Part shown: one piece after another, positions 20,556 through 59,475 of the stretch | How the letters are laid out: every line of letters starts with the position of its first letter | How positions within the stretch are numbered: position 1 is the first letter of the stretch | Source: Candidatus Latescibacterota bacterium | GTDB taxonomy: Bacteria > Latescibacterota > UBA2968 | Direction of reading: 5' to 3' | Assembly: GCA_965116885.1 (NCBI GenBank) | Contig: OZ220741.1 | Coordinates: forward strand, 1,568,001-1,632,000 | DNA: 64,000 nt | Notes under the pieces: model-generated | The model's input: only the letters and a program-made list of their open reading frames with translations | Told to the model about the DNA's origin: nothing | The model's database searches: none | Translations under genes and position numbers: made by a program

Positions 20556-20604
20556 TGGCAAATAACAAAGGCTACGTCTTTGGAGGCGTAGCCTTTTCTT
20601 ATTC
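20556..20604. repeat. 49-bp terminator-containing direct repeat, copy 1
   Basis: TGGCAAATAACAAAGGCTACG..CGTAGCCTTTTCTTATTC; 4 mismatches vs 22042-22090. Confidence 0.85.
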
Positions 20605-20654
20605 TCTGCTTCTGCACTATCCTATATTGTCTCCTAAATCAAAACACCCGACAG

Positions 20655-20876: not shown

Positions 20877-20970
20877 ATTGTCTCTCCTGTGATGATCCCA
20901 TTCTTTTGTTACGCGGTGCCCCTAAACCCTTTGAAACAACATTGATTTGTGCATCATTTGTGCATATATT

Positions 20971-21027
20971 CGTCCCGCAACGCGTCGGGAAAGGAGAATA
21001 TATGAGCAAAAAAGAACATCATTTTGA
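20971..21027 (+). pseudogene. brnT: BrnT toxin C-terminal remnant
   Basis: Reads RPATRRERRIYE..., the BrnT C-terminal motif, overlapping the brnA start; the rest of the gene is absent. Confidence 0.7.
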
Positions 21028-21262
21028 GACCGCCCAACAAGGCCCTGTCGTTCAGCCACCACCCGGCAAGACGCGCATCACTATTCGCCTTGACACAGAC
21101 ATTCTGAATTGGTTTAAGAAACAGGTTCATGAAGCAGGGGGCGGAAATTATCAGACGCTTGTGAATCAGGCGCTCAGAGAACACATTCAGGCTAACAATG
21201 GCGCATTGGAACAAACACTACGCAAAGTCATTCGTGAAGAACTCGGTTCACACGCAGTCTAA
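21002..21262 (+). CDS. brnA: BrnA antitoxin family (ribbon-helix-helix)
   Basis: KTRITIRLDTDILNWFK...GGNYQTLVNQALR; AAGGAG RBS. Confidence 0.88.
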   Translation: MSKKEHHFETAQQGPVVQPPPGKTRITIRLDTDILNWFKKQVHEAGGGNYQTLVNQALREHIQANNGALEQTLRKVIREELGSHAV

Positions 21263-21359
21263 CAAATTTGCATCCCAAAAACATTTGACAATGTATAAAA
21301 TCTCGGGCTTGCCAATGGGGTGTACGTAATTCTAAAAATGAACCAAAACGAGGCCCAGT

Positions 21360-21665
21360 ATGTCATCTACAAAACGGGATTTCGAGGGTGTCCGGAAACA
21401 TCCCCATATCATCACAAATAATCAGATTTTGGGCGGAGAGCCAATTATCAAAAATACGCGCACACCTGTTCGGGCGATTATTGAAGTCTGGCGTTTGGGC
21501 ACACACCCCGAAAATATTCCAAACCACCTTCCACATTTGTCTTTGAGACAAGTTTTTGATGCCCTGAACTATTACAACGACCATCAAGAGGAAATAGAAA
21601 AATATATTGAAGAAAATCGCATTCCCAACAGATTGATCGATCCCCTGGCACACGCAACACAATGA
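21360..21665 (+). CDS. DUF433 domain antitoxin
   Basis: ILGGEPIIKNTRTPV...PHLSLRQVFDALNYY. Confidence 0.9.
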   Translation: MSSTKRDFEGVRKHPHIITNNQILGGEPIIKNTRTPVRAIIEVWRLGTHPENIPNHLPHLSLRQVFDALNYYNDHQEEIEKYIEENRIPNRLIDPLAHATQ

Positions 21666-22006
21666 GTTTATTTATTGAATTATATCTCGATGAAGATGTC
21701 GATATCCTGATAGCAGATTTACTCAAAGCTCATGACTTTTCTGCACTTACAACGAGAGATGCAGACCAGCTTCAGAATCGCGATGCAGATCAATTGGCTT
21801 ATGCAACCAGACAACAGAGGGCATTTCTTACTCATAATCGCGTTCACTCCGAGATTCTTGCCAGGTCATATTTTGAAAAAAATAAAACACATTGGGGGAT
21901 AATTATTGCGGTTCGTCGTTCACCTTACGAAATTGTGCAACGACTTTTGGGTATCTTAAATCGCGTTACAGCAGAGGAAATGATAAATCAGATCCGATAT
22001 ATCTGA
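21662..22006 (+). CDS. DUF5615 PIN-like toxin
   Basis: LYLDEDV, D..QLAYA, LTHN, HWGII; ATGA overlap with the DUF433 gene. Confidence 0.88.
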   Translation: MSLFIELYLDEDVDILIADLLKAHDFSALTTRDADQLQNRDADQLAYATRQQRAFLTHNRVHSEILARSYFEKNKTHWGIIIAVRRSPYEIVQRLLGILNRVTAEEMINQIRYI

Positions 22007-22041
22007 TATATATCGGCCGTGATGCTCAATCGCCTGTCCGA

Positions 22042-22090
22042 TGGCAAACAACAAAGGCTACGTCTTTCAAAGCGTAGCCTTTTCTTATTC
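22042..22090. repeat. 49-bp terminator-containing direct repeat, copy 2
   Basis: Near-identical to 20556-20604; bidirectional hairpin between convergent genes. Confidence 0.85.
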
Positions 22091-22104
22091 CCTATCTTGA
22101 AATC

Positions 22105-22740
22105 TTATGATCCAACATCATGTTCATCAGATTTATACCACGTAGGGCGATTACTCGCATCCCCTTCTGAAATCCATCGAAAGAGACCGTTATTCCATGT
22201 TTGTATCTCTTGGACTTGCGGATTCCAACACCACATAATTTCACCAAAATTGCGATCTCGGTTGTATTTATACAAAAAGTCTATGACATCTTCCTTGTCT
22301 CCAACAACGAGAAACCTACGAAGGCGATAGGGTCTATCACGATCTCCTTTGCAACCGCCTATATAGGCATTATTCCCACTAAGAAGTTGTTGAGCACGAA
22401 GATCGGTTTCGGTCATGGGTTCTCCGCCATCAGAAATATTCTCATCATCCGAAACAGATTTGTCTTGACTCGTATTTTCAAGACTTTCACCACAATAACG
22501 ACATTTAATCGCTTCAGCTTTAACAAGTTCAGCGCAGAAAGGACACTTTTTCATGTCACCTGTGTTAATGGCTCTCTTATCTACTTCAGTCTGATCTTCA
22601 GGAACAACCAAAGCTAAAACAATTCCGAGAGGTCCACATAGAGAGACAATAATGAACCAACCACAACCGCTTCGACCCTTATTTGAAGCTATAACAGCAC
22701 CGATTATCCCGCAAATAATCCATATAAAGAAAAATTCCAC
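22105..22740 (-). CDS. membrane protein with zinc ribbon
   Basis: Two N-terminal TMs (IASNKGRSG.GWF), KKCPFCAE...KCRYCG. Confidence 0.8.
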   Translation of the reverse strand: MEFFFIWIICGIIGAVIASNKGRSGCGWFIIVSLCGPLGIVLALVVPEDQTEVDKRAINTGDMKKCPFCAELVKAEAIKCRYCGESLENTSQDKSVSDDENISDGGEPMTETDLRAQQLLSGNNAYIGGCKGDRDRPYRLRRFLVVGDKEDVIDFLYKYNRDRNFGEIMWCWNPQVQEIQTWNNGLFRWISEGDASNRPTWYKSDEHDVGS

Positions 22741-22874
22741 ATAAAACCTCTAAAGCTATTTGTCCTTAAATGACCTCAACCAAAAAAGAACGCCGCGATT
22801 TCGCAGTTGAAAATTTGTCGTTCCAACTGCTCAACGTATGCTTTTATCCGCCGTCCCTTGTATCTCCTGATTTT

Positions 22875-24383
22875 TCAAATTTTGATTAGTTTATCGCGCC
22901 ATTTGGAATTCTCATAGTTTTTCAGACATTTGGTAATCAATGCTGCTTCTGGATAATTGCTGAGTATTTCGAGGGGTTTTTCTATATCCTCTTGATAAAA
23001 AGATTCTTTAGGTTCTGAGTCTTTTAATTTTTCATGTAAAAATTTTATCAGTTCGTCTTTCTCTTTATGTTTTGACAGAATGCACATTATCTTATTAAGT
23101 CGCCTAATTTTGAGACGGAACTTGTAATCGTCATCCAAAAAACACTCCAATAAAGCACCTCTCAACATGTCGTCAGGCCAAGCGTTAGGTTCTCCAATCC
23201 ACTGATCAAGAAAATCTACAGCGTCGCGTGCGTAGAGTGAGTCTGAGTTTCCCTCAGCGGTTTGCAAAATATTACGACCAAGTTTTCCGGCTTGATCAGC
23301 GTCCAAGTTTCCTAAGTTTTTCTCTCCATTTTGCATTATTAGTTGCATTGCTGAATTTTGGGTGTAAAAATGAAGAGACTCCAGAGCTTTTATAATCCGA
23401 TCGAAGCAGGTAGATGTTTTCAAACCCGACGCTATCAACGTTTCCATTCCACTTTTCTCAATAGCCTCTTGAAATCTGTCTTTCTGTCTATCGTTAAGCA
23501 CATTATCGTCGTACAGATACTCCAAATCATTTAGACCAGATGGTCTAATATTTGAGTTATCTATTAGGTGCGAGACGATACTATCTTGAGCACGCTGCCC
23601 AATTTCTTTGAATAATCCCGGGTGTTTTGCAAGTATTAAGCACAAAATTTGCGGATATTGTATAACGAGATTATGCCACTTATCAGCACTGTAAATGCTA
23701 CAACCTACAAGTTCTAAAAATTTGCGGAGAAACCAAGTCGCCCTGTCCGTAAATAATTTGAGACTCCAGTCGTCGGCGTCAGGCTCAACTTGTTTGATGT
23801 ACTGTTCTACAAGATAACCGTAAACATTTTTATCGAGCTTTGGTGTAATGTCTTCTGCCTGTTTGCTGACAGCGGGTTCGTAATTGTCGAGAAAGGTGGG
23901 GTTTTCCATCAGATTCTTGATCAACCAGGATACATAACCCTCTTTCAAAGTGGTAGGTTTGGATAGCACATTCTCGACTACTGTGCAGGCAGCATGTATG
24001 ACTTCTTCCACAGTGGGAGCTTCTTCATAAGGATGCCCGAAGATACAACGCATTTTATAGATATGTTCTAATTTTTCGTACGCGACATCAGATACGAAGC
24101 CATATTTTTCAGCTTCAGAGAGAATCATTTTATCGATACTCTGATGATTTTCTTCTTTATTTTTCAATTTACCAACAATTTTTCCAGCATTGTGGTCTCT
24201 GGTAGCAGCTTCTTGAAATTTACGTTTTAGAGATTCCAAACACGAAAGCCATAATAGAATGTAGGCTCCTCTTAATGCTCCAACTTGTGCAGATTTAACG
24301 GCCTCGTCAAAGAGCGGTTTATCTTCATCCTCAAGTACTCTGTTTTGATATTCAGATAAATCTGTCCCGTTCTCGTTATGCAT
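22875..24383 (-). CDS. HEPN-like domain protein with helical C-terminus
   Basis: FDEA...GALRGAYILLW first helices and R-x4-H motif (RCIFGH); AT-rich; GAGGAG RBS. Confidence 0.65.
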   Translation of the reverse strand: MHNENGTDLSEYQNRVLEDEDKPLFDEAVKSAQVGALRGAYILLWLSCLESLKRKFQEAATRDHNAGKIVGKLKNKEENHQSIDKMILSEAEKYGFVSDVAYEKLEHIYKMRCIFGHPYEEAPTVEEVIHAACTVVENVLSKPTTLKEGYVSWLIKNLMENPTFLDNYEPAVSKQAEDITPKLDKNVYGYLVEQYIKQVEPDADDWSLKLFTDRATWFLRKFLELVGCSIYSADKWHNLVIQYPQILCLILAKHPGLFKEIGQRAQDSIVSHLIDNSNIRPSGLNDLEYLYDDNVLNDRQKDRFQEAIEKSGMETLIASGLKTSTCFDRIIKALESLHFYTQNSAMQLIMQNGEKNLGNLDADQAGKLGRNILQTAEGNSDSLYARDAVDFLDQWIGEPNAWPDDMLRGALLECFLDDDYKFRLKIRRLNKIMCILSKHKEKDELIKFLHEKLKDSEPKESFYQEDIEKPLEILSNYPEAALITKCLKNYENSKWRDKLIKI

Positions 24384-48300: not shown

Positions 48301-48514
48301 TGGAATGGATGAGGCGATCCAGCAACGTCTTTTTGAGCCTTTTTTTTCGACTAAGGATGCCGACCGGGGTACGGGTTTGGGGTTGTCGATTATTTTTGCC
48401 ATTGTTCACAATCACGATGGAGAGATTACTGTGGAGAGTGAACAGGGCGTAGGCACGACGTTCAGGGTGATGTTGCCGGCGGTGGAGAGGGGCCTGCCCC
48501 CAGTTCCCCCCTAA
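45380..48514 (+). CDS. sensor histidine kinase with beta-propeller and Y_Y_Y-like extracellular region
   Basis: Repeated D.DG.LW.G propeller blades, TM, AHELNQPL H-box, NARDA, DNGVG, GTGLGL. Confidence 0.92.
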   Translation: MQYAKYLILLILVGASACFAATPFTPRHPDPVHESWRWRSFSELKGQEVSCLAQDGDGNFLFGTDDGIYRYDGISWHLFPFDEGMVGAQINALYTSRDGSVYVGSDRGISRFENGIWERVFPSEGGWNTYNFMEARDGSLWAGTEWGALRLMVDGTRLYVAAEDTTGVREMVSDAVTFVAVPFSGQRLMVYDVCEDSNGAVWFGMYDGDLIRFDFASGFQRFSEDDGIDQGKYPRMCVTKDGVVWVVYGDESQRVNRFDGEKWEALEVGDLGRDHHYTSILESRDGTLWIGGSRLIAYRNGMWRVYDSKDIVSLPLHRMELFEAADGALWIIEREQEAARLDLSENYFQTYDGLIFQCEADGAQWFISEDNGVMRRDGQGWTRFGVADGLMDMPSKLIVTRDGALWAAGSHERVAATARLDGSEWVMERHPQLSWRVDPRGVYEAFDGTLWFAAAADWWLYDGFLGGVVVFDGASWIHHIPPMMTRYAYGIGQSSDGVLWFGGRLFGFDGMREVQFTGPEELTNDFIDAVYTQGNLWLGSRTYGVFRYDGTAWQQFDYGDGLAHNEVRSIFQDRDGAVWVGTAEGVSRFDGRTWLPRALPSGLPRTEFYDPILQSGDGAFWLNSVSDVDAWLRRSEPQRDAISYTLRTIRYVPETDPPETLMTIVQEEVSQGGKITFAWTGIDAWRSTLREDLQYAHRLDGGEWSPYGGDTILSFEGLDVGTHTVEVKARDLAFNEDPVPSLVQFNVVPLVWRRLWFISLILGFVILTGYLISRIIVRDRRLQKANEDLASANETQLLQSARLVSLGQMVAGVAHELNQPLTAVETTAGDISLRLMEGMPLETDELRKMMEDVRGVVNRMAGTVDHLRVFSRDVSEEPRQAMDVNEVIQSSLKLMGSQLERYGIDLVLDLSGALPKVWGHLHPLEQVVLNLLSNARDAVDERAEMEGVGYDKQVRVRTRGENDAVVVEVEDNGVGMDEAIQQRLFEPFFSTKDADRGTGLGLSIIFAIVHNHDGEITVESEQGVGTTFRVMLPAVERGLPPVPP

Positions 48515-50081
48515 AGGAACGGAATATGTCTCGTTCTTGCTCACCTACCGCGGGCTTCGATGCGCCAAAGCTCACATTAACCCCTCTGCTTTGAAGTGCT
48601 GGAATGTGTGTGTTGATTGATGTAGCATTTAACGGGTTATTTCTCACATAAACCCAATCCCCACTACCCAATCCCGTATTTGCGACCAGGGGCGTGAGGT
48701 CCGATATGCTGTTGTTGTAAAGAGACAGCTTTTCCAGACGGTTCAATCCTGAAAGGGATGTGATGTCCGATATGCTGTTGCTTTCAAGATCCAGCAATTT
48801 TAGACTATTCAATCCTGAAAGGGATGTGATGTCCGATATGCTGTTGCTGGAAAGAAACAGCCCTTCCAGACGGTTCAATCTCGAAAGGAGTGTGATGTCC
48901 GATACGCTGTTGCTTTCGAGAAACAGCCCTTCCAGATTGGTCAATCTTGAAAGGGGTGTGATGTCCGATATGCTGTTATTGGAAAGATACAGCCATTCCA
49001 GACGGTTCAATCCCAGAAGGGGTGTGATGTCCGATATGCTGTTGCTGGAAAGAGCCAGCCATTCCAGACGGTTCAATCTCGAAAGGGGTGTGATGTCCGA
49101 TATGCTGTTGTTGTAAAGAGACAGCTTTGTCAGGTTAATTGCAAACTCAAGTCCAGTCAGATCGCGAATATTATTGTTTGGTGCCTCAAGGCTCGTTAAG
49201 GCCACCAGGTCACCTCTGGTGATCGGAGTACCCTCCGCCTTGTTGAGACTATTCTCGATAACAGCGAGTAGATTCTCATCCGGAATGGCAACGATTGTTG
49301 CAACACCGCCAGAGGAAGATGCCTCTTTACCAAAGCTGTTGATAAAGATCAGAAAATCGGGAAACCCTATCTCGCTATTGCCATCCAGATCATACCTGGC
49401 GTCGTACGTCCCATCGCCACGACTTGTATCGAAGTGAGTTACAAACAGCAAAAAATCGGAAATATTAACCACACCATTCCCATTAAAATCACCCGTTAGC
49501 ACACTCGATGTCCCGATATCTGCCGATTTTGCAAAACTGATCACGAACCTGATTGGATCTTCTGGCGGAACGAGATGAGAAAGCGGACTCAGTGCCAGGT
49601 CTCTTACAGATTCGGGTAATGACGCCAATAATTCATCTAAGAGAAGCGGGCGTATAATATGCAGTGAATCCGCCGTAGCCGTGTACGTATAATTGAGTGG
49701 ATCTTCATTTTCGCGTGTTACGATGAGTTCATGGGTATCGGACATGACGGTGTAATTGCCTGTGTATTGGCTCGTATCGTGTACAGTGACCGTAAGCAGA
49801 ACCCATAATAACGCAGAGACATTGGCCACTGTCTTGTAGTTCGCTTGAATACTGCCATCTGAATCCAAAATCAGTGTGCCGTTGATCTCGCCTTCCACTG
49901 TAAGAGGCTTTACAGCTTCCACGAGCGCGGCCGGGACATAAGCGTTCAGTTCGACCTTGTGGGCTACCCAAGAACCGGTGAGATCCCCACCCTGAGGCCT
50001 GGGGGGTTCTGATAGAACACCCGCGTCTGCCTGCCCAAATGTTATGAGTGTCATCACGAGTAGAACACAGTTTCGCTGCAT
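48462..50081 (-). CDS. secreted dockerin/EF-hand plus internalin-type leucine-rich repeat protein
   Basis: Signal peptide; GDFNGNG..DF / YDLDGN..DF; 22-aa LRRs (L.L..NSISDITPL). Confidence 0.88.
   Translation of the reverse strand: MQRNCVLLVMTLITFGQADAGVLSEPPRPQGGDLTGSWVAHKVELNAYVPAALVEAVKPLTVEGEINGTLILDSDGSIQANYKTVANVSALLWVLLTVTVHDTSQYTGNYTVMSDTHELIVTRENEDPLNYTYTATADSLHIIRPLLLDELLASLPESVRDLALSPLSHLVPPEDPIRFVISFAKSADIGTSSVLTGDFNGNGVVNISDFLLFVTHFDTSRGDGTYDARYDLDGNSEIGFPDFLIFINSFGKEASSSGGVATIVAIPDENLLAVIENSLNKAEGTPITRGDLVALTSLEAPNNNIRDLTGLEFAINLTKLSLYNNSISDITPLSRLNRLEWLALSSNSISDITPLLGLNRLEWLYLSNNSISDITPLSRLTNLEGLFLESNSVSDITLLSRLNRLEGLFLSSNSISDITSLSGLNSLKLLDLESNSISDITSLSGLNRLEKLSLYNNSISDLTPLVANTGLGSGDWVYVRNNPLNATSINTHIPALQSRGVNVSFGASKPAVGEQERDIFRSFRGELGAGPSPPPATSP
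48690..49150 (-). repeat. about 7 x 66-bp coding tandem repeat (LRR)
   Basis: GTCCGATA(T/C)GCTGTT recurs every 66 bp. Confidence 0.9.
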
Positions 50082-50222
50082 CTTAAACCGCCATTTTTTG
50101 ATCGCGGTACCAAAAAGTGACCTGTTCATTTTTCCTAATGCATGATCACTTTCCAAATTTACACAATTTTTTGCCGTCCCGTCAACTGTTTGAATATACC
50201 TCGCTGTACAAAGTTAAGATCG

Positions 50223-51749
50223 TTAGTTGTTCCTGGATGATTCAGCATAGGACACATACGCCGATCGCACGATTTCTTCGGACAGTTTGCCGCGGATGGC
50301 ATAATTGCGGCGACGTGCCCAGTATCTCGCCCACCGTTCGTCGCTGGCTATCCAATTATCCCAATAGAAGACGCCATTTACTATACCAGGATACTGCGCC
50401 ATGGTGTTGATTAATGCCTTGTAGATGTTGGCCTGCGTTTCTCGCCCGTCATCCAGCCCATTGTGGTTAGAGTCGGTAAATACGAATCGCCGGTTTTGCG
50501 CTGATGCATCACCTGGCCGTTCGGGTGTTTCAACCACATCCATAGCGCCGTATTCGGTAAATACAATGGGCCGGTCGGGGTTTGTGTTCGCAAGCGGAAT
50601 AAGCTGGTTTTGGAATATCTGCCTGTAACGCACCTGGAAACTTTCGACGCTCAGTACTGTTGACGGACGCGCGTCTGTCAGTGGAAACCACGCACTGATG
50701 CCTATGAGGTCGAGATCGAGGTCTGCCCATAGATGACCTGCGCCCGATCCCGGTCCGTAAAAGTGGGATGCTGCGAGTACGTCGTAGTGCATGTCATAGG
50801 TTAGCAGGCCACTGTACACGGCGCGCACACTTTCTACCATTGATCTGAGTTCTCGACCAAAATCATTGGTCATATAGCCTCCTGAACGCGTGCGAAAGAG
50901 CCGGTCAGTCTCCGTGCCCAATGAGTATAAACGCACGCCTTCGGCCTCTGCTATTCTGGCAAAATGTACCGCCTGTTGCGTATAGGTCGCCCAAAATTCG
51001 GCGACAAAACGCCGGTGATCCGGATGATCTGGACGCCAGGGCCAGTGTTGGGGGAGTATCACCCCATAGACATTCGAATTATCTGGCGGAACGCCGCGAG
51101 GTGCCGGGTCTCCGAGTTGCCACCTGCGTACCGGGCGTGCAGCGGTTTCTGCCTCATAGGCTTCGAATGCCAGGGTTAGATATACGTCTATTCCGTGATT
51201 TCTAAATTCTCGGATCAATTGTCTGAGTGCTTCATTTGAAAAAGTGCGAATATCTACATTTGATGCGTACACGCGTTCGACTGTGCTGTCCATGCTGTCG
51301 TCGTAATGCAGCGCGACGGAAAGGCCGATCCAGTTTACATGCAGGCTCTTTAGCCATTCGATATAGTCCATAGGTATGAGCGTTCCGATCCTTCCAGCGG
51401 CTTCCCATCTATCTACGACATCGCCAGTATCTCCCCAATTGCCCGCAGCATGAATGGCGCGTAGCGGAAATTTTATTATCGTGTCTATCGTCTGGGGCAC
51501 TGTTTTGCCAAAGTCGCTGGCAAAGATCAGAAAGTCTGAAAATGCAATCGCGCCATCGCCATCCAGGTCGAATCGGTCTTCATACGTCTCATCACCACGA
51601 CTTGTCCCGAAGTGTTCGACAAATAGCAAAAAGTCTGGAAGATCCACAACGCCGTTTCCGTCAAAGTCGGGGAGAGGGGTGTGTGATGCGTGCGCCCAGG
51701 TCCATAGACAGCTTGCCATGACTACAAGCGCGATACACAAACGCTTCAT
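50223..51749 (-). CDS. secreted dockerin/EF-hand plus GH113-like TIM-barrel glycoside hydrolase
   Basis: PDFDGNG..DF / FDLDGDG..DF; LGTE, LTY, GISAWFPL, PIVFTEYG, GVFYW. Confidence 0.75.
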   Translation of the reverse strand: MKRLCIALVVMASCLWTWAHASHTPLPDFDGNGVVDLPDFLLFVEHFGTSRGDETYEDRFDLDGDGAIAFSDFLIFASDFGKTVPQTIDTIIKFPLRAIHAAGNWGDTGDVVDRWEAAGRIGTLIPMDYIEWLKSLHVNWIGLSVALHYDDSMDSTVERVYASNVDIRTFSNEALRQLIREFRNHGIDVYLTLAFEAYEAETAARPVRRWQLGDPAPRGVPPDNSNVYGVILPQHWPWRPDHPDHRRFVAEFWATYTQQAVHFARIAEAEGVRLYSLGTETDRLFRTRSGGYMTNDFGRELRSMVESVRAVYSGLLTYDMHYDVLAASHFYGPGSGAGHLWADLDLDLIGISAWFPLTDARPSTVLSVESFQVRYRQIFQNQLIPLANTNPDRPIVFTEYGAMDVVETPERPGDASAQNRRFVFTDSNHNGLDDGRETQANIYKALINTMAQYPGIVNGVFYWDNWIASDERWARYWARRRNYAIRGKLSEEIVRSAYVSYAESSRNN

Positions 51750-51830
51750 GCTGCGCCTTTCTGTGCATTGTTAAAAAGAACACGCGCCCAAAATATATTT
51801 TCAAGGGCGATAGGCAAGCGTATTTGACCT

Positions 51831-51888
51831 GTTCTATTGAGAAAAATCCAATGATTTAGAAATGGCCGTTGGGCTTTTTGTGTGGTTT
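51831..51888. repeat. degenerate terminator-containing direct repeat, copy 1
   Basis: GGCCGTTGGGCTTTTTGTGTGGTTT plus a decayed left arm; homologous to 54154-54212. Confidence 0.75.
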
Positions 51889-51962
51889 ATTCTCATTCTA
51901 TGTGCGGTATTGTATGCCATATCTCAATGTTAGAGAACGATTCATACTATTTTTCAGTTTTA

Positions 51963-52020
51963 CAACAGTTTTGTTGACATTTATATTTTTACAACAGTTT
52001 TGTTTACAACAATCTTGTTG
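51963..52020. promoter_or_regulatory. three CAAC-N6-GTTG operator-like palindromes overlapping TTGACA
   Basis: 51963-51976, 51992-52005 (one mismatch), 52007-52020. Confidence 0.65.
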
Positions 52021-52046
52021 AATATTAAAAAAGAAAGAGAGGTCCC

Positions 52047-52356
52047 ATGAAATCATTCACCGGCCCCCCGGTCATCGGTGACAACTTTTTTGATCGCGAT
52101 CGCGAGTTGCAGATATTGGAAAGGCGGGTCCGTGACGGCAACCACATATTGCTGACAGGACAGCGGCGCATGGGAAAGACCAGTATAGCCCGAGAACTCG
52201 GGCGACGGCTTGAGGACAAGGGGTTGGGACCGCGATACCAGTGTAGAGTGTTTTCAACCGCGTCTGCTGAAGGACTGGTGGGCGTCGCGTTTCCGCAATC
52301 ACATATCTCTCGAAAAGCGCCGTTCTGAAGACGAATCACCGGGAGACGTACCATGA
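52047..52356 (+). pseudogene. P-loop ATPase (partner gene) collapsed by internal deletion/frameshift
   Basis: N-terminus FFDRDREL...GQRRMGKTS; another frame gives FQPRLLKDWWASRF...* whose TGA overlaps the next ATG. Confidence 0.8.
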
Positions 52357-54152
52357 ACGAATTATACAACATGTCGATCCGGAAGTTCAATCCGGGGACG
52401 CTCCAATCAGACGAGGAAGTGATTGAGCAGTTTGTGGTCAGGAAACGCGAACTCGATATCGCGCTTGAGGTGCTGCGCGGTAATATCGATTCACCATCGT
52501 GTCAGCATGTTCTGGTCGTTGCGCCTCGCGGTCTGGGAAAGACCATGCTCCTCGCGCGGATCGCGGCGGAGTTGAATACGGATGCCGAATTCTCCGAGTG
52601 TCTTTTGCCGGTTCGGTTTATGGAAGAGAGTCATGAGATATTCAATATCGCTGATTTTTGGCTCGAAACCTTGTTCCATCTTGCACGGGAAGGTGCCAGG
52701 CACGATCCCGTGCTCGCACGGGGACTGCGAGAGACATACGCCGACCTGGCTGATCGCTGGCTCGAGAAGGAACTCGCGAATCGCGTCCTTGCTGCTGTCC
52801 TGGACGCGGCGGATCGGCTGGGCAAGAAACTCGTTCTCATGGTCGAAAACCTGCAGACGCTCTACGAAGACGTAGATGAAGATTTCGGCTGGCAGCTACG
52901 CGGCACATTGCAAACGGAGCCTCAGATTATGTTGCTCACCACCGCTACGAGTCGTTTCAAAGGGCTGGACGACGCGGAGCAGCCGTTCTTTGAGCAGTTT
53001 CGAATACTGGATCTGGAACCTTTGAATACCGAAGAATGCCGTCGTTTGTGGCAGATCGTCAGCGACGACGAGGTGAGTGATCGCGAGATCAGGCCGCTTG
53101 AGATCCTGACTGGTGGGAATCCCCGTCTCCTGGTCATCATTGCCGAGTTCGCGCAGCATCAGTCATTGAGTCAGTTGATGGAAGAGCTTGTGACGCTGAT
53201 TGACGAGCATACCGAGTATTTCCGCGGTCACCTGGAGGTCTTGCCTAAGAGCGAACGCCGCGTGTACCTTTCGGTGATTGACCTTTGGCAGCCGTCGAGC
53301 GCGGGCGAGATTGCGGTGCGGGCGCGCATGGATGTTCGATACGTATCGACCATGCTCGGACGACTCGTCAACCGGGGTGCGGTCACTTTTAAGGGTACTG
53401 GTAGGAAGCGTCAGTACGAAGCCGTAGAACGCCTCTACAGCATCTATTACAAACTGAGACGCGAACGCGACGATAGGGCTTTGGTAGAAAACCTGATCAA
53501 TTTCATGGTAGCTTTCTACGGTATAGGAGAACTATACCAGATGTCCAGCAAGCTGATTTCGGAGACGACGATTATTCGCGAGGAAAATGACACTGAAGGG
53601 GAAATTGCAGCCTACAATGAGGTGATCAAGTGCTTTAGCGACCAACAGATAAATGTAGCCATCGCGTTGAGCTACAAGGGAATGAGAGAAGCCGAGATGG
53701 GGCGTGCAGCAGCAGCTTTACAAACCTGCAAAGAACTCGAACAAAGACTCGATACCTTGCCCAAAGACGGAAAAGCTTGGATTAGATGGCGAGCAATGGG
53801 TGTGCGGGCACTGGCACTGATGGTAAAGAAAAAGCGTCGGGCCGCCATGGATGCATTTCGCTCCGCGTATGCCGCGTTTCTTCCCAACAACGAAATCACC
53901 CTGCACGAGATGCAAAGAATTGTCCCCGGGTTGATAGCAAACGGTGCCCCGGAGCGAGATCTCATCGAGATCCTGTCCAGCGACAAGGAGAAAGCGGACG
54001 CGTTGGTGCCCCTCATTGTTGCCCTGCGAGAGCGTACCGGCGAGGTGGTTCGCGCACCTGTGGAAGTCCTTGAGGTCGCGAAGGATATTAACAAGAATAT
54101 TGACGCCGAAATGGCGAATTGCGATGGGGAACTGGCAGGTTTACATATCTGA
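52353..54152 (+). CDS. STAND-like AAA ATPase-wHTH-TPR protein (short allele)
   Basis: APRGLGKT Walker A, LVLMVEN Walker B, GGNPR, wHTH (EIAVRARM...LGRLVNRG), one TPR-like unit. Confidence 0.85.
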   Translation: MNELYNMSIRKFNPGTLQSDEEVIEQFVVRKRELDIALEVLRGNIDSPSCQHVLVVAPRGLGKTMLLARIAAELNTDAEFSECLLPVRFMEESHEIFNIADFWLETLFHLAREGARHDPVLARGLRETYADLADRWLEKELANRVLAAVLDAADRLGKKLVLMVENLQTLYEDVDEDFGWQLRGTLQTEPQIMLLTTATSRFKGLDDAEQPFFEQFRILDLEPLNTEECRRLWQIVSDDEVSDREIRPLEILTGGNPRLLVIIAEFAQHQSLSQLMEELVTLIDEHTEYFRGHLEVLPKSERRVYLSVIDLWQPSSAGEIAVRARMDVRYVSTMLGRLVNRGAVTFKGTGRKRQYEAVERLYSIYYKLRRERDDRALVENLINFMVAFYGIGELYQMSSKLISETTIIREENDTEGEIAAYNEVIKCFSDQQINVAIALSYKGMREAEMGRAAAALQTCKELEQRLDTLPKDGKAWIRWRAMGVRALALMVKKKRRAAMDAFRSAYAAFLPNNEITLHEMQRIVPGLIANGAPERDLIEILSSDKEKADALVPLIVALRERTGEVVRAPVEVLEVAKDINKNIDAEMANCDGELAGLHI

Positions 54153-54153
54153 A

Positions 54154-54212
54154 GTTCTTATAGGAAAAGCCCAACGGTTTGGAGAAGGCCGTTGGGCTTT
54201 TTTGTGTGGTTT
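54154..54212. terminator. bidirectional terminator, direct-repeat copy 2
   Basis: AAAAGCCCAACGG..CCGTTGGGCTTTTTT. Confidence 0.8.
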
Positions 54213-54259
54213 TCTCTGGCTTCCGCCAGGGTCAAGGCCGATTTAAAACTCATTTTTCC

Positions 54260-54349
54260 CTACGTTCCATGTTCCATTGATAGGAGCGTTCCGACTCTTT
54301 GTAAAACCGCATCGCCGCGCTGTGGAACGCACTCGTCTGGCTTCACCAT
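54260..54349 (-). pseudogene. mazF: MazF toxin with large in-frame internal deletion (29 aa)
   Basis: MVKPDECVPQRGDAV joined directly to LQRVGTLLS; overlaps the mazE stop. Confidence 0.8.
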
Positions 54350-54585
54350 ATTTCACCGCCTACAGCAGGTCCAGTATCTATTTCACCGTGTAAGTTGTGC
54401 TCGGTCACCTGGGATAGAAGGTCGTCCAATTTCAAGTCAGATGGCTTTACAGGTTCAATGACCAATTCCTTACCACGCAGCGATAATTCGACCGGCGAAT
54501 TGGGTTCAAGCCCGATCTGGACAGCGAGTGGTTTGGGAATACGCAGGGCCAAACTATTGCCCCATTTCTGCACACGGGTTTCCAT
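54343..54585 (-). CDS. mazE: AbrB/MazE family antitoxin
   Basis: VQKWGNSLALRIP...LDDLL..VT..NLHGE.D.G..VG.E.W; GAGGAG RBS. Confidence 0.93.
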   Translation of the reverse strand: METRVQKWGNSLALRIPKPLAVQIGLEPNSPVELSLRGKELVIEPVKPSDLKLDDLLSQVTEHNLHGEIDTGPAVGGEIW

Positions 54586-54743
54586 ATCTTCCTCCTCTAA
54601 ATAGTAGATACATTGAGACTTAGAACTTATCAAGGCCAATTTTGCATCCCTCACGAAGTGGCAATACAATACGCGATATTGCATGTCATATCCCATTGGT
54701 AGAGAATGACTTATATCGACTTCGCACTTTTGTCCACAATTTG

Positions 54744-54835
54744 GTTGACAAAAACTTTTGGAATATTATTTTGTCAACTGTTTAGTTGACAAAAACTTTT
54801 GGAATATTATTTCGTCAACTGTTTAGTTGACAAAA
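54744..54835. repeat. 41-bp tandem duplication in a promoter, with CAAC-N6-GTTG palindromes and TTGACA
   Basis: GTTGAC at 54744, 54785, 54826; TTGTCAAC-TGTTTA-GTTGACAA. Confidence 0.85.
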
Positions 54836-54862
54836 ATTTAATGAATCATCAGGAGACGCGTA

Positions 54863-57322
54863 ATGAACAATTGTGATCGACCAATCCGCAAGTTCAATCC
54901 GGGGACGTTTCAGTCCGACGAGGAGGTGATTGAGCAGTTCGCGGTGAGGAAACACGAACTCGATACGGTGCTTGGGGTGCTGCGTAGGAATATCGGTTCA
55001 CCATCGTGTCAGCACGTTCTGGTGGTCGCGCCTCGGGGTCGGGGAAAGACGATGTTGCTCGCGCGCGTTTCGGCGGAACTGAATACTGACGAGGAACTCT
55101 TCAGGTGTTTTTTGCCGGTTCGGTTTATGGAGGAGAGTCACGAGATATTCGATCTCGCGGATTTTTGGCTGGAGACTTTGTTTTATCTTGCGCAGGAGAG
55201 TGTCAGATACGATTCCGCGCTCGCACAGGAGTTGCGAGAGGCGCACGCCGATCTGACCGATCACTGGGACGAGGCATCGCTCGCGGATCGCGCCCGTAAT
55301 ACTGTTCTGGACGCGGCGGATGGGTTGGGTAAAAAGCTCGTTCTTATGGTGGAAAATCTGCAGGCACTCTGCGAAGATGTGGATGACGATTTTGGCTGGC
55401 AGTTGCGCGGCGCGTTGGAATCCGAGCCTCGGATCGTGTTGCTCGCTACTGCGACGAGTCGCTTTGAGGGGTTGGAAAATGCAGCGGAGCCGTTTTTTGA
55501 GTTGTTCCGAATTGTCGATTTGGAACCGCTGAGCACTGAGGACTGCTGCCGTCTGTGGGAGGTGGTCAGTGGCGATGTGGTGACTGAGCGCGAGATCAGG
55601 CCGCTCGAGATCCTGACCGGTGGCAATCCCCGTCTTCTAATCATGGTTGCCGAGTTCGCGCAGCACAGGTCGTTGCGCCAGTTGATGGAAGAACTGGTGA
55701 CGCTGATTGACGAGCATACCGAGTATTTTCGCGGTTATCTGGAGGCTTTGCCCAGGAGCGAGCGTCGCGTGTATCTCGCGTTGATTGATTTTTGGCGACC
55801 ATCGAGTACGAGCGAGATCGCGGCACGGGCGCGTATGGGGGTTCGGCCCGTATCGACTATGCTCGGTCGGCTTGTCAGTCGGGGTGCGGTCGTCGTGGAG
55901 GGGACTGGCAGGAAGCGATTGTACGCCGCAGGGGAACCTCTCTATAGCATCTATTACAAGCTGCGGCGCGAGCGCGACGAGGCGACAGGTATGAGGCGTC
56001 TGATCCATTTCATGATGGCGTTTTACGGGATAGGCAAGTTGTACCAGATGTCTGGTCGGCTGAGTTTGGAGGCGGCAGAGTCAAAGGTTATTCGCGAGGG
56101 TATTGAGCGTGCGCTCGCCGAACAACCGGATGTTGAGGACAGTTTTTTACGCGTGGCAGGGTCGGCTGTCGAATATATATCGGATAAAGCGACGGCAAAT
56201 GCGCCATTCACAGCGGAACTGCGTTTAAAAGAGGAGATCCGAACGGCGCTCGATGAGAAAGAATTTGAAAGGGTTATCGAGATTGGTGACCATTTTATCG
56301 CTTCAGGAGGCGTGGATGTATCTCTGATGCCAGAGTCTCTGCTTGCCTACATCTTGCATATGAGGGCTATTGCTTATGAAAAATTGGAGAATTTCCAGGG
56401 GGTGGTCGCGGTTTGCGATGAGATGGTTGAGCGTTTCGACGACGCGAGCGACCATACACTTCAGGCGCGGATGGCTCGCGTATTGATCCACGGGGCAAGA
56501 GCGCGATATGAACTCGGAGAGTTGGGGTTGGTGATGTCGGCATATGAGGAGGTGATTGAGCGTTTTGGTGCCAGCGACGCGCCCGATTTCCAGTTTCCGG
56601 TCGCTCTGGCGCTGTTAAAAAAGGGAGATTTGCAAGTTCAACAGAGAGAGTTGGGGCTGGCGGTGTCTGTATATGAAGAGGTGATTGCCCGCTTTGGCGC
56701 CAGCGATGCATCGGGGATTCAGGTTTTGGTCGCCTGGGCGTTGTCCCAAAAGGGAGATTTGCAAGTTCAGCTAAGAGAGTTGGATTTGGCGATGTCAGCG
56801 TATGAAGAGGTGATCGAGCGTTTTGGTGCCAGCGATGTGCCAGCGATCCGGGTTCTGATCGCCTGGGCATTATCCCAAAAGGGTATGATACAAATTAAGG
56901 TGGAGCGTATGAAAGAAGCTATGCTCATAAGTGAAGAGCTTGAGGGAAGACTCGGTGCGTTGGCTGACGATGAGAAGGTGGTGTTTGTATGGCGAGCAAG
57001 GTATGTCCAGGCTTTGGCATTGCTGCTCAGGAACAGACTACGGATGGCTATGGATGTATTTCAGTCGGCGTATGCGGTGTTCTTACCTGACAACGAGACG
57101 ATGATGTATGAGATGCTACAACTCGTGCCCGATTTGATCGCAAACGGTGCCTCGGAGCCTGATCTTGTCGATATTCTCCTGTCCAGGGGGAAATCCGATG
57201 CGTTGGAACCGCTTATTGTTGCCTTACGACAGCGTTCCGGCGAGGTGGTTCGCGCGCCTGTGGAGGTTCTTGAGGTGGCGAGGGATATTAACAAGCGTAT
57301 TGAGTTTTTTCTAAATGCATGA
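54863..57322 (+). CDS. STAND-like AAA ATPase-wHTH-TPR protein (long allele)
   Basis: Close paralog of 52353-54152; APRGRGKT, GGNPR, three 43-aa repeats at 129-bp period. Confidence 0.88.
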   Translation: MNNCDRPIRKFNPGTFQSDEEVIEQFAVRKHELDTVLGVLRRNIGSPSCQHVLVVAPRGRGKTMLLARVSAELNTDEELFRCFLPVRFMEESHEIFDLADFWLETLFYLAQESVRYDSALAQELREAHADLTDHWDEASLADRARNTVLDAADGLGKKLVLMVENLQALCEDVDDDFGWQLRGALESEPRIVLLATATSRFEGLENAAEPFFELFRIVDLEPLSTEDCCRLWEVVSGDVVTEREIRPLEILTGGNPRLLIMVAEFAQHRSLRQLMEELVTLIDEHTEYFRGYLEALPRSERRVYLALIDFWRPSSTSEIAARARMGVRPVSTMLGRLVSRGAVVVEGTGRKRLYAAGEPLYSIYYKLRRERDEATGMRRLIHFMMAFYGIGKLYQMSGRLSLEAAESKVIREGIERALAEQPDVEDSFLRVAGSAVEYISDKATANAPFTAELRLKEEIRTALDEKEFERVIEIGDHFIASGGVDVSLMPESLLAYILHMRAIAYEKLENFQGVVAVCDEMVERFDDASDHTLQARMARVLIHGARARYELGELGLVMSAYEEVIERFGASDAPDFQFPVALALLKKGDLQVQQRELGLAVSVYEEVIARFGASDASGIQVLVAWALSQKGDLQVQLRELDLAMSAYEEVIERFGASDVPAIRVLIAWALSQKGMIQIKVERMKEAMLISEELEGRLGALADDEKVVFVWRARYVQALALLLRNRLRMAMDVFQSAYAVFLPDNETMMYEMLQLVPDLIANGASEPDLVDILLSRGKSDALEPLIVALRQRSGEVVRAPVEVLEVARDINKRIEFFLNA

Positions 57323-57391
57323 AAACATTAAAATTTAAAAAACATAATATGAATACGCGATCTTGCTTTTTGCCAATCCCGTTTTATTTTT

Positions 57392-58576
57392 TTAAAATGT
57401 GTCTCCCAATATGCGAATGAATAATGTGCCGCTAAATCGCACTTGTGCGCGTTTCAGTATTTCGATTTTTTGTTTTTTTTCTGTAAGTTCTTGTTCCATT
57501 CGCCTCAATTTAAGATAGTGAATTGGCGGATAAGTCCTTTTTGAGATTTCCAGTTTTTCACAAATTCTCAATATTTCCTCCGATAGATTTTTTTCGCGTT
57601 CTGATAAGTTTTGAAGGATGGGCTGAAGTCGAGAGATGTTCTCTTTTTGGGCAAATTGAAATTTCAATGACCGGGGGGCGATGGTGATGGCATTGGGGGT
57701 TTCGCGTCCGGGAGAGAATGTATCAGATGATTTGAGCTGTCCAGATACAAGACTGTTTTCGGGGATCTGATTTACCAGTTGCTCATAGGTTTCGTCTTTT
57801 AACTGGCGTATCTGTATTTTTACGGGGCGATCTGTTTCTCGCACGCGCACTTTGTCTGGTAAGATGGCGCCGTGCTCTCCGCATGTTTGAACCCGTCCGT
57901 TGACTATGATCCAGAACATGGCGGGTTTGGCGTCGAGGATTACACCTTCTCCGCGTACGTGCTCCCGCGTGTGTCGCCAGCGTCCTTCAAAGGTTAAGAT
58001 GGTTTCTGTGTCGGCTCTGCGATAATTTGCGTATGCAGCAGAGGGGGTGGCCATGAGGTATCTGAATGATTGCCAGATGCCTCCCATGTGCAATATGGGC
58101 AGAAATATCAGGAGCATAAGCAAAAGTCCGATTAACAGACAACCTTCTCCCGTAGATCCAGTTTTGATTCTGTATTTTGCGTTGCCGGGAAAGACACAGG
58201 GCGCTGAATAGGGATAAAACAGGGGTACACCGCTTTTGGTGGCGCAATCGGCGATTATATGGCTCATATAGCCCAGGATTAGGGCCGTGTAACACGGAAT
58301 TTGCCAGATGAGCAAGGGCCAGATCATAACCGATAGGGTGAGCAGGCAGAGCAACGAGTGTGTGATGGTGCGGTGTCCCCATTGCTTCTCGATGGGGATG
58401 GAGGCAAATGGGAGCACGCGACCGATATAACTGCGTGGGGAATCTATATCCGGGAGCACGCTGCCTATGATGGTGCCTGCGATAGCGGGGAGGTTGTGGT
58501 GAAGGGGCATGGAGAAGAAGGAAAAGGATCCCGCTACGGTGAGTAGTCCAAATGCAATATGTGTGGGAGCTGTCAT
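57392..58576 (-). CDS. YdjM/DUF457-type membrane metal-dependent hydrolase with C-terminal extension
   Basis: MTAPTH, GSVLPDID, GHRTITHS, GYMSHIIAD..T.SGV. Confidence 0.85.
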   Translation of the reverse strand: MTAPTHIAFGLLTVAGSFSFFSMPLHHNLPAIAGTIIGSVLPDIDSPRSYIGRVLPFASIPIEKQWGHRTITHSLLCLLTLSVMIWPLLIWQIPCYTALILGYMSHIIADCATKSGVPLFYPYSAPCVFPGNAKYRIKTGSTGEGCLLIGLLLMLLIFLPILHMGGIWQSFRYLMATPSAAYANYRRADTETILTFEGRWRHTREHVRGEGVILDAKPAMFWIIVNGRVQTCGEHGAILPDKVRVRETDRPVKIQIRQLKDETYEQLVNQIPENSLVSGQLKSSDTFSPGRETPNAITIAPRSLKFQFAQKENISRLQPILQNLSEREKNLSEEILRICEKLEISKRTYPPIHYLKLRRMEQELTEKKQKIEILKRAQVRFSGTLFIRILGDTF

Positions 58577-58641
58577 CGTTTGAACCTGTACTTGAAGAAG
58601 CGAATGCCTGCGATTTTTTGTTTTGATGATTGGTGCATCAT
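58573..58641 (-). CDS. 22-aa basic small ORF or gene stub
   Basis: GAGGG RBS, MMHQSSKQKIAGIRFFKYRFKR*, ATGA overlap with the next gene. Confidence 0.3.
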   Translation of the reverse strand: MMHQSSKQKIAGIRFFKYRFKR

Positions 58642-58680
58642 GAGAAATACCCTCTTGTGCAGGTTGGTGTTGCAGTGTTT

Positions 58681-59475
58681 TCAAGATTGATTTTTCCCGT
58701 TTGAACGCGCATCGCGTTTTGTGGTGGTCACATCGACGAGGGTGCCGGGGCGGACATATTTTCCCGCATTTAAAAAGAGACCCGTTACTTTGCACGTCCC
58801 GCTTTGTGGATCGATGATGGGGCTGATCCCGATAATGCGACCGGACAGGGCGCGTTTTCCGCCGGCAGTTGGCACGGCAGACAGCGGCATATTTATCTGG
58901 ATCGCGTTCAGCTTGTCTTCGGGCACAAACAGATGTACCTGAAGATCCCTGGGGTCGATGATCCGCGCGACCTCGGTGTAAGCCAGTATCCAGTCGCCCG
59001 GCTTTACATTGACCTCGACCACCATCCCGTTCTGGGGTGCGATGATTGTGGTTTTGTCCAGTTCTATGCGCGTGGTGACCCAGTTGCAGTGCGCGACCTC
59101 GGCATCAAAGCGGACATTTTCAAGCTGTTGGTCACTGATCAGCTTCTTTTTATGCAACACTTCCCATCGCGCTTGCAAGGTCTGAGCTTTCTTCAGTGCA
59201 ATTCGGGCCGCGGTTTCCTTCAGGCGCAGATCTCGGCGGGTTAATACCATGAGGGTATCCCCTTTGACGACCAGATCTCCCTCATCAAAGTTGACGTGCT
59301 GTATCCGCGCATTCAGGCCAGCATAGACGGTCGCCGACCGCGCAGGTACTAAAGGTGCCCGCAATATGAGTTCTTCTGCGCCAGCTCTTGTGGCAATGAG
59401 GATGAGGAACAGACCGCAGAGAAACAAAGCGTTGTGTCCTATAAGGCGAAGAGTTGCAAATGACTGGTGAACCAT
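58681..59475 (-). CDS. efflux RND/ABC periplasmic adaptor (MFP) subunit
   Basis: EGDLV.KGD.L lipoyl half-motifs, IIAPQNG.V, ISPIIDPQSGT, RPG; AGGAGG RBS. Confidence 0.85.
   Translation of the reverse strand: MVHQSFATLRLIGHNALFLCGLFLILIATRAGAEELILRAPLVPARSATVYAGLNARIQHVNFDEGDLVVKGDTLMVLTRRDLRLKETAARIALKKAQTLQARWEVLHKKKLISDQQLENVRFDAEVAHCNWVTTRIELDKTTIIAPQNGMVVEVNVKPGDWILAYTEVARIIDPRDLQVHLFVPEDKLNAIQINMPLSAVPTAGGKRALSGRIIGISPIIDPQSGTCKVTGLFLNAGKYVRPGTLVDVTTTKRDARSNGKNQS

Follow-up and report, generated by a model that had tools for sequence, protein, structure and literature searches.

A hallmark of STAND ATPases (ATPases for signal transduction that have numerous domains) is a winged-helix domain that comes after a helical domain bearing a GxP motif. 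Most of the studied bacterial NLR-like proteins (relatives of the nucleotide-binding leucine-rich-repeat receptors) bear an enzymatic part with which they cut DNA or kill the cell. Another well-known arrangement is that of MalT, which combines AAA_16, a MalT-type tetratricopeptide repeat (TPR) domain, and a LuxR helix-turn-helix, and which is not known to have a coupled AAA+ partner gene. A third protein, PH0952 from Pyrococcus horikoshii (Protein Data Bank (PDB) entry 6mfv), is described as carrying an ArsR-like effector domain at its N-terminus and is predicted to be a transcription factor; the authors of that description propose that it acts as a ligand-switched regulator (PMC6468293). The locus considered here lies in a stretch of 64,000 nt from Candidatus Latescibacterota bacterium (contig OZ220741.1, positions 1,568,001 to 1,632,000; the whole stretch is called the window below). 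It holds two units of a two-gene cassette, in which gene A encodes a small AAA+ ATPase and gene B encodes a STAND-like ATPase with a winged helix and a TPR sensor.

As far as sequence comparison can tell, A and B constitute a conserved, translationally coupled pair, and a palindromic operator belongs to the cassette and travels with it across phyla. The family is large, lacks an effector, possesses a fixed AAA+ partner and its own operator, and has no name in the libraries searched. It is proposed, tentatively and with slightly less than an even chance in our judgment, that the cassette is a self-regulated, mobile, effector-less NLR-like sensor pair that senses invading genetic elements in conflict or defence.

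Scanning one genome per species gave 319 matching stretches. Of these, 303 could be confirmed as relatives, and the 80 best, making up 77 loci, were retained. According to the record titles, these 77 loci belong to ten named phyla: Latescibacterota (26), Pseudomonadota (15), Acidobacteriota (14), Binatota and Gemmatimonadota (3 each), Nitrospirota, Nitrospinota, Thermodesulfobacteriota, and Rhodothermota (2 each), and Spirochaetota (1), with seven loci unassigned. When crude gene calls were clustered, B recurred in 75 loci and A in 68, while the next family was present in only 13, due to synteny among close genomes; no third conserved gene or effector was found in the neighbourhood of the 77 loci. 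An intact A (at least 380 aa) ends just upstream of 55 of the 84 B genes. A fragmentary or split A precedes 11 more, and none was scored in the other 18, although one of these (L073) does have a 412-aa A abutting B. Among the 55 intact pairs, the A stop codon lies in the context ATGA (31), GTGA (4), or TTGA (3), 38 of 55 in total, and in 50 pairs it stands 17–56 nt before the codons for the conserved IRKFNPG of B. The translational coupling that the initial annotation had deduced from the window is found again in most of the 55 intact pairs, and a failure of A and B to be conserved as neighbours, named there in advance as the outcome that would count against the idea, was not seen. No fused A–B protein was found among the longer proteins, which is weak evidence. 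Complex prediction with alignments for the B (513 aa) and A (424 aa) of L066 gave 0.00 in two control-less runs and counts neither way. Several B paralogs can share one contig.

The two B genes of the window, B1 and B2, are paralogs, as annotated from the start, and the expected open reading frames (ORFs) and motifs were found in both: Walker A (PRGxGKT), Walker B, GGNPR, a TrmB/MarR-like winged helix-turn-helix (~298–360), TPR-like repeats, and the C-terminal RAPVEVLEVA.DI. Identity between B1 and B2 is 73% in the N-terminal 405 aa and 53% in the C-terminal 172 aa, and between these two parts B2 carries ~230 residues of extra repeats relative to B1. The closest relative of window B1, that of L005, is 92% identical to it over the N-terminal 400 columns. 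The invariant columns of B comprise PRGxGKT, the residues G253, G254, P256, and R257, and a Walker B motif VLMVEN, which has the form hhhhEN, not hhhhDD/DE. Since the second acidic Walker B residue is replaced by Asn, B may bind ATP and hydrolyse it slowly. In Pfam, the cassette proteins of the window match only generic families, namely AAA_16, AAA_22, and ATPase_2, a weak TrmB-type winged helix at ~298–360, and TPRs; AAA_16 scores 40.5 bits for B1 and 32.7 bits for B2 (cut-off 32.6), and both the TrmB and the MarR matches map to the winged-helix segment. The winged helix of a Sphingobium B homolog reaches 29.7 bits for TrmB (cut-off 25.6), and a Moraxella plasmid homolog reaches 30.2 bits for NACHT (cut-off 26.7).

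The structural model of B2 is of mixed quality (predicted local distance difference test, pLDDT, 78; predicted template modelling score, pTM, 0.47), and its lid is poorly modelled. The model runs from the P-loop core through the lid, further helices, and the winged helix (298–357) to an all-helical solenoid, in which helix pairs of 20+15 residues recur every 43 aa, and ends with four or five capping helices. The top Foldseek match of B2 in PDB is 6mfv, the STAND–TPR protein PH0952 (E 1.7e-7; template modelling (TM) score 0.29/0.36), which agrees with the NLR/STAND-like architecture suggested initially. Orc1, 2qen/2fna, Avs3, SAMD9, and Apaf-1 are among the lower fold matches, and the PDB search at the sequence level gave no match of B to 6mfv. 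B displays the STAND features of a P-loop core, a GGNPR helical domain with the winged helix, and a C-terminal repeat sensor; the feature missing is an effector domain at a protein end. In keeping with the initial annotation, no effector domain was found in A or B in the Pfam, NCBIfam, and PADLOC scans, the last of which covered the window proteins, the intact proteins of L001, L063, and L073, and the plasmid homologs. Nor did the two window B proteins, the B1 of L001, or the profile of the C-terminal part show a LuxR-type DNA-binding domain.

B is a widespread protein. Among 8000 candidates scored in a protein collection, 2998 clusters at 90% identity are relatives of B at E <= 0.001. Almost all of them are unnamed, the rare names being “tetratricopeptide repeat protein”, and the Pfam lists of many include PF17874 TPR_MalT. 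The last ~110 residues of B form a family-specific helical module, the C-terminal cap. Searched against 1.84 billion representatives, its profile retrieved 709 clusters at 50% identity with E <= 0.001, of which 84 reach E <= 1e-30. Of the 150 proteins listed, the great majority carry the matching segment at their C-terminal end or close to it. In 20 cap proteins scanned, the cap occurs only behind TPRs, and the other domains are AAA_16/AAA_22, TrmB, and DUF7342. Searches for relatives of the cap elsewhere were negative: PDB sequences gave only noise (best E 0.008, a ribosomal protein), Pfam gave no family apart from weak TPR matches in 9 of 40 members, and all ESM Atlas matches score below 0.9.

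The sensor is the variable part of B. Across the loci, the B length ranges from 513 to 1269 aa as the sensor length varies. At the lower end, two B proteins, of 513 aa (L066:7986-9527) and 516 aa (L035:8001-9551), have the core fused in frame to the cap and no TPR sensor at all; both resemble window B1 in a more extreme form, and L066 keeps an intact A beside it. In nine pairwise comparisons of B2 orthologs, the ratio of nonsynonymous to synonymous substitution rates (dN/dS) is 0.16–0.26 overall, 0.25–0.52 in the arm, and 0.22–0.28 in the TPR part. The “diversifying” character ascribed to the B genes in the initial annotation therefore holds for sensor length and for the turnover of repeats and indels, but not for substitutions. 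Purifying selection on B2, a gene without an adjacent A, indicates that B is retained on its own, to function either alone or together with an A supplied from another place.

Large TPR-like solenoids, together with the leucine-rich repeat (LRR) and dockerin repeat proteins encoded in the window and related loci, could also be taken to mean that B is a eukaryote-like TPR protein of host-associated bacteria that contacts host proteins, with A as its chaperone. This explanation is considered very improbable, since a nucleotide switch, a winged helix, and an operator-controlled promoter make up the architecture of a cytoplasmic sensor, and homologs reside on plasmids of free-living and food-spoilage bacteria. 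Furthermore, the N-terminus of B is a conserved ATPase lead-in peptide with no obvious export signal (no signal-peptide tool was run).

Gene A is more uniform than B. The intact protein has ~414 aa, and the mean column identity is 74% in 36 sequences from many phyla. The invariant columns include Walker A (GQRRMGKTS) and a canonical Walker B with DE (LLVIDELP); a C-terminal winged helix and then the LLKDWW tail follow. A search with A only returned 1541 clusters at E <= 1e-20, none of them named, and the ESM Atlas offered only generic “ATP-binding protein” clusters. The A model is better than that of B2 (pLDDT 83, pTM 0.80), and its top fold matches are 2qen and 2fna (E 3e-11 and 1e-10; TM 0.61 by query, 0.70/0.69 by target), followed by Orc1/Cdc6 (TM 0.44–0.51; 2qby, 0.51) and RuvB. 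At the sequence level, 2qen is the sole PDB match of the A profile at the default cut-off of 0.001 (E 9e-5), and Pfam PF01637 ATPase_2 scores 24.5–26.9 bits, below the cut-off of 33.2. Judging from the model, A is an AAA+ ATPase whose fold is shared by Orc1/Cdc6 and the archaeal ATPases of PF01637. Close paralogy of A with the B core is not claimed: a profile–profile alignment covers only 49 P-loop lead-in columns, with a probability of 66%.

The third constant element is the operator, which the initial annotation had also singled out as dedicated to the cassette. In the window, two 29-nt repeats precede A in unit 1, each holding an imperfect palindrome of the TGTCAAC-N6-GTTGACA type, and three 41-nt repeats with the same type of palindrome precede B2 in unit 2. 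The core CAAC-N6-GTTG occurs at only four sites in the whole window (51963, 52007, 54775, and 54816), all of which are in the two cassette promoters, where they overlap promoter-like hexamers. Elsewhere, at least one such core is found at −250 to +40 of the first cassette gene in 58 of the 76 loci examined. These stretches contain 125 cores versus 47 in the rest of the loci, i.e., 5.67 versus 0.036 per kb (~150-fold), and the sites are often paired, 15 nt apart. In 9 of the 18 loci without a site, the core lies either ahead of a second B or, where the ORF was called too long, within that ORF just in front of the real start of A, which raises the count to 67 of 76. Operator-like palindromes also precede B homologs without A (39–40% identity) on Agrobacterium and Sphingobium plasmids, and the far more distant Moraxella and Clostridium pairs have different upstream palindromes. 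Since the operator persists in the absence of A, B is more likely than A to be the protein that binds it.

A few sites stand alone. Solo operator sites at L037:15216-15244 and L029:14916-14929 lie between an LRR gene and a gene for a secreted FlgD-Ig-type protein, 4–5 kb from the A–B cassette of the same locus; that of L037 is a pair 15 nt apart. The sister locus L025 holds the cassette at this very place. The solo operators look like either a scar or a docking site of cassette relocation.

A conserved palindromic operator that overlaps a promoter is also what would be expected if B were an ordinary STAND-class transcription factor acting in the manner of MalT or PH0952, with A as its co-regulator or anti-activator and with no immune role. 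B would then sense a metabolite or a protein via its TPR domain and control genes elsewhere in the genome. This is a serious rival, even if we regard it as rather unlikely. The TrmB/MarR-type winged helix, the lack of a detectable effector domain, and the purifying selection on the whole of B2 all fit it. It is less easily reconciled with the operator distribution, the cassette itself being the only conserved target seen, with no conserved partner operon, or with a sensor of such unstable length (513–1269 aa for the whole protein) that is repeatedly lost in frame. Moreover, B has neither a LuxR-type nor an ArsR-type domain, unlike MalT and PH0952.

The layout of the window locus is as follows:

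50223-51749, minus strand: flanking gene, GH113/dockerin; left border of the variable stretch
51804-51893, plus strand: scar left by another B-type gene, made up of its final codons, 3′ flank, and terminator, recognized as direct repeats
51951-52030, plus strand: unit-1 promoter and operator array, palindromic sites starting at 51963 and 52007
51959-51987, plus strand: unit-1 promoter-like hexamers, TTTACA-17-TATATT
52047-52356, plus strand: gene A pseudogene in two out-of-frame pieces, a P-loop piece and then an LLKDWW-tail piece
52353-54152, plus strand: B1, open frame of 599 aa, STAND-like ATPase with winged helix-turn-helix, shortened TPR sensor, and C-terminal cap
54163-54212, plus strand: intrinsic terminator after B1, an 18-pair stem and then a T run
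54263-54349, minus strand: mazF remnant, residues 1-15 and 103-119 of the L001 MazF
54343-54585, minus strand: mazE antitoxin gene, whole, 80 aa (Pfam MazE_antitoxin, NCBIfam MazE)
54728-54850, plus strand: unit-2 operator array, three 41-nt repeats, each with the imperfect palindrome TTTTGTCAAC-N6-GTTGACAAAA
54745-54772, plus strand: unit-2 promoter-like hexamers, TTGACA-16-TATTTT
54838-54862, plus strand: B2 leader with ribosome-binding site, aligning with the last codons of A at other A–B junctions
54863-57322, plus strand: B2, intact STAND-like protein of 819 aa (ATPase, winged helix-turn-helix, TPR, cap)
56517-56903, plus strand: three tandem 129-nt (43-aa) TPR-like repeats within B2, recognized as direct repeats and as helix pairs in the model
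57392-58795, minus strand: flanking gene, YdjM-like membrane hydrolase; right border of the variable stretch

Unit 1 thus has A, B, and an operator, but A is broken; unit 2 comprises an operator and B only. The unit-1 operator and the scar before it fall slightly beyond the interval that was initially annotated (52047-57322). The window is syntenic with six other Latescibacterota loci (L001-L006) at 85–95% DNA identity, and the stretch between the flanking genes is variable. L001 has the order A-B1-mazEF-B2, L002 A-B1-B2, L005 mazE-A-B1-B2, L003 and L006 mazEF-B2, and L004 only B2. Comparison with L005 accounts for the state of unit 1. About 960 bp of A are gone, as the initial annotation of a collapsed A implied, positions 4239-5196 of L005 being replaced by ~23 nt. 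The 5′ piece of A extends to ~52228 and the 3′ piece starts from ~52252 in a different frame; the stub is a 93-aa ORF (52047-52328) that bears the RRMGKTS P-loop and matches Pfam AAA_16/ATPase_2 weakly, and the tail (LLKDWW...GDVP) is in a second frame (52210-52356) that ends in ATGA over the B1 start. In B1, ~700 bp (~217 aa) of the sensor have been lost in frame. The deletion sites of A (52229-52251), B1 (53564-53585), and mazF (54305-54313) all fall within 2.3 kb, and both ends of each gene are kept. Unit 1 is therefore a decaying copy and not a working pair, and B2 is intact.

The mazEF genes, which the initial annotation regarded as interposed in the system, require a similar correction. 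Whole mazE does stand between the units, with 44.2 bits for Pfam MazE_antitoxin (cut-off 24.7) and an NCBIfam MazE match as well, but mazF, which in its intact L001 form matches PemK_toxin, is gutted. As a cassette component, mazEF was rejected: its presence and position vary in the related loci L001-L006, where it may be missing or lie on the far side of A-B1, and the window copy has a broken mazF.

In the B-core tree, the B2-type genes form one Latescibacterota clade of 15 rows (support 99), sister to the A-linked B1-type genes of Latescibacterota inside a 28-row clade (support 96). This topology implies that B2 arose by a lineage-specific duplication, in agreement with the duplication perceived in the window, and that A was lost once. 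The B2 leader tells the same story: ~24 nt of it can be aligned to the 3′ ends that A genes have at A–B junctions elsewhere, so that the last A codons persist in unit 2 as initially noted, and this fits a duplication followed by a single A loss. B2 is the ortholog of a Latescibacterota-wide B lineage without an adjacent A. A further relic is the scar at 51804-51893, in which 51831-51893 matches 54154-54217, just past the B1 stop, and 51804-51824 matches 57281-57301, the last codons of B2. Such a scar points to a tandem array that once existed, or to recombination at the ends of cassettes.

An Rfam search of window positions 51000-58000 gave no match. Two minus-strand dockerin genes lie at 48462-51749, one with LRRs and the other with a GH113-like domain, and similar LRR genes flank the cassettes of L023, L025, L029, L037, and L039. 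At 20001-24000, G+C drops to 0.40–0.45 versus ~0.52, and the ORFs there (22105-22740 and 22875-24383) have no or weak Pfam matches; this segment may be a foreign island.

Beyond the window, the evidence for movement comes mainly from the A tree. Phyla are interleaved in this tree, with 18 label changes versus a minimum of nine, and Latescibacterota needs at least five changes forced by well-supported branches; for example, L066 (Latescibacterota) is sister to L031 (Bryobacterales) with 99% support. Binning and paralogs could still affect this interleaving, but many interleaved loci are on multi-megabase contigs, which argues against binning error. Among near-identical Latescibacterota genomes, the cassette is present, absent, or shifted. 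Taken together, the sequences indicate that the cassette moves between phyla, duplicates, and decays. This conduct, seen even among close genomes, and the possible presence of several paralogs on one contig are not typical of the MalT-like regulator considered above, while the syntenic, vertically kept B2 of one Latescibacterota lineage speaks in favour of such a regulator.

The neighbourhood was scanned at 40 loci (L017-L056), taking the two nearest genes per side (148 proteins, two long proteins excluded). Flanks of the mobile or conflict type comprise a TrwC relaxase with a coupling protein, two tyrosine integrases, an rve integrase, three DDE transposases, PIN, HipA with HTH, HigB, HsdM/S (type I restriction–modification) with AbiC, a DNA methylase, and NYN. 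A 150-aa DUF7689 protein (~450-nt ORF) is encoded directly upstream of A in L021, L034, L037, and L039, which belong to Latescibacterota and Gemmatimonadota; in L021 and L034, it is preceded by a very long ORF.

Plasmids supply the most distant relatives. Overlapping A-like and B-like neighbours (19–25% identity) are present on three plasmids of Moraxella osloensis and one of Clostridium estertheticum, and the pairs usable at the bench are those of M. osloensis pNP7-2 (L080, 5752-9034) and C. estertheticum pCF003-70 (L081, 5785-9835). B without A is found on plasmids of Agrobacterium (L078, 4084-10195) and Sphingobium (L079, 1043-5413). The neighbours include QatD, a QueC-like gene, a kinase, and a methylase in Moraxella; a Pycsar cyclase with its effector and AbiEi/AbiEii in Sphingobium; two cyclase-domain genes and a ThiF-family gene in Agrobacterium; and DUF3800, a GIY-YIG nuclease, and an integrase in Clostridium. 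The presence of some plasmid copies beside anti-phage systems is a further point against a plain transcription factor, in contrast to the housekeeping neighbours of many loci, which suit it well. Both A-less B genes, L078 and L079, adjoin genes with adenylate/guanylate-cyclase domains; this adjacency may reflect chance or a functional link.

Plasmid copies and relaxase, integrase, and transposase neighbours are also what a selfish maintenance or addiction module might show, in which A and iteron-like repeats would serve replication, partition, or exclusion, and B would be their regulator. The Orc1/Cdc6/RuvB-like fold of A with its C-terminal winged helix points in this direction, as do the 2–4 direct repeats, each with an inverted repeat, that resemble iterons or origin boxes, and the solo operator pairs where a sister genome holds the cassette. 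Nevertheless, we find this improbable: the module has two genes only and no conserved recombinase, replicase, or partition partner, most copies are chromosomal and sit among unrelated genes, and an A-less B is kept under purifying selection. The repeats, moreover, overlap a promoter-like site directly before the start codon, as is usual for autoregulation.

How might a sensor pair of the proposed kind work? A cassette unit consists of the operator/promoter, gene A, gene B, and the terminator. The winged helix of B may bind the CAAC-N6-GTTG array over its own promoter and so keep the cassette repressed. A ligand, most likely a protein, that occupies the TPR solenoid would, together with ATP, turn B into an oligomer. 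The stop/start overlap would fix the A:B ratio, and A, as a hydrolysis-competent AAA+ partner, might assemble with B on DNA or reset it. The output would then be at the level of DNA or transcription and not enzymatic killing.

A bolder version, which we hold to be doubtful, is that the DNA-bound STAND sensor B and the Orc1/Cdc6-like A represent an undescribed effector-less form of NLR-like immunity, exchanged among at least ten phyla and acting on DNA or transcription. If so, an invader protein would be sensed by the fast-changing solenoid of 43-residue repeats; the sensor-less or short forms (L066, L035, and window B1) would be constitutive or decoy variants; and the terminator scars and lone operators would be traces of recombination by which cassettes were exchanged.

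Several points weigh against a sensor of invaders. That B binds the operator, that A and B interact, that a ligand exists, and that the role is in defence are all steps which we infer, and the immune role suggested by the initial annotation is one to which only architecture, mobility, and some neighbours point. The winged helix of a STAND core need not bind DNA, as in solved STAND structures it clamps the nucleotide, and the structural likeness of B to 6mfv has a low TM in a model whose pTM is 0.47. The exact operator core was not found in 9 of the 76 loci. No PADLOC model matched beyond P-loop noise, and no relatives of A or the B core were found in 50,697 phage records, so that there is no hint of a phage partner. 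Housekeeping flanks (PdxA, XdhC, ComFC-like, and DNA polymerase I) are common, and the mixture of flanks, read without a genome baseline, is only suggestive. No positive selection was seen in the B2 sensor over the nine pairwise comparisons. Finally, an effector-less module whose sole conserved target is itself fits a regulator equally well.

Either outcome would be of interest. Should the cassette be an immune sensor, it would show prokaryotic NLRs with an output of a new kind and would be a sensor and helper paired by nature; should it be a regulator, it would represent a widespread, mobile, and unrecognised class of ATP-switched transcription factors. Since distant A+B pairs are carried on plasmids of culturable Moraxella and Clostridium, the question can be tested at the bench.

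The comparison with known systems began with the libraries. PADLOC-DB v2 (2023) gives matches at the P-loop level only (mad8 and PDC-S01, E 2e-4 or weaker), and NCBIfam (2026) gives for A and B weak matches far below the cut-off; there is no match to a named system in these or in Pfam, as the initial annotation had anticipated. Full-text searching of the literature turned up no description of the A–B pair. For a 2026 census of 589 STAND clades (PMC13581612), a text search of the supplements, which hold only representatives of clusters and may be incomplete, gave no match to six contig names and six WP accessions.

Among described proteins, the nearest to B is PH0952, which has in common with it the domain order of P-loop core, helical domain, winged helix, arm, and TPR sensor; B differs by the lack of an ArsR-like domain and by possessing the family-specific C-terminal cap and the partner gene A. 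With MalT and the LAL regulators (large ATP-binding regulators of the LuxR family), B shares the AAA_16 match, the TPR_MalT of its relatives, and the logic of a switch controlled by ATP and a ligand, but no LuxR-type domain was found in B. Avs/AVAST and bNACHT proteins are similar in having a STAND core with a large TPR-like sensor, Avs3 being among the fold matches of B; however, Avs proteins carry nuclease, protease, SIR2, or other effectors, none of which was found in B.

As to A, its best fold matches, PAB2304 (2qen) and SSO1545 (2fna), have the same AAA+ core with a C-terminal winged helix, but the identity to A is 16% and the Pfam ATPase_2 score of A is under the cut-off; to our knowledge, these two proteins have neither a known function nor a B-type partner. 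Orc1/Cdc6 resembles A in the AAA+ and winged-helix fold and in the repeated inverted-repeat boxes next to the gene, whereas A shows no relation to it at the sequence level and no replicon context, and the cassette boxes overlap a promoter. MazEF, whose mazE lies between the window units and which occupies that place intact in L001 and L003, does not belong to the cassette. The combination of a large effector-less family, a fixed AAA+ partner, and an operator conserved across phyla is unmatched in the libraries and literature searched, and in kind the cassette belongs with the STAND/NLR-like ATPases that carry TPR sensors.

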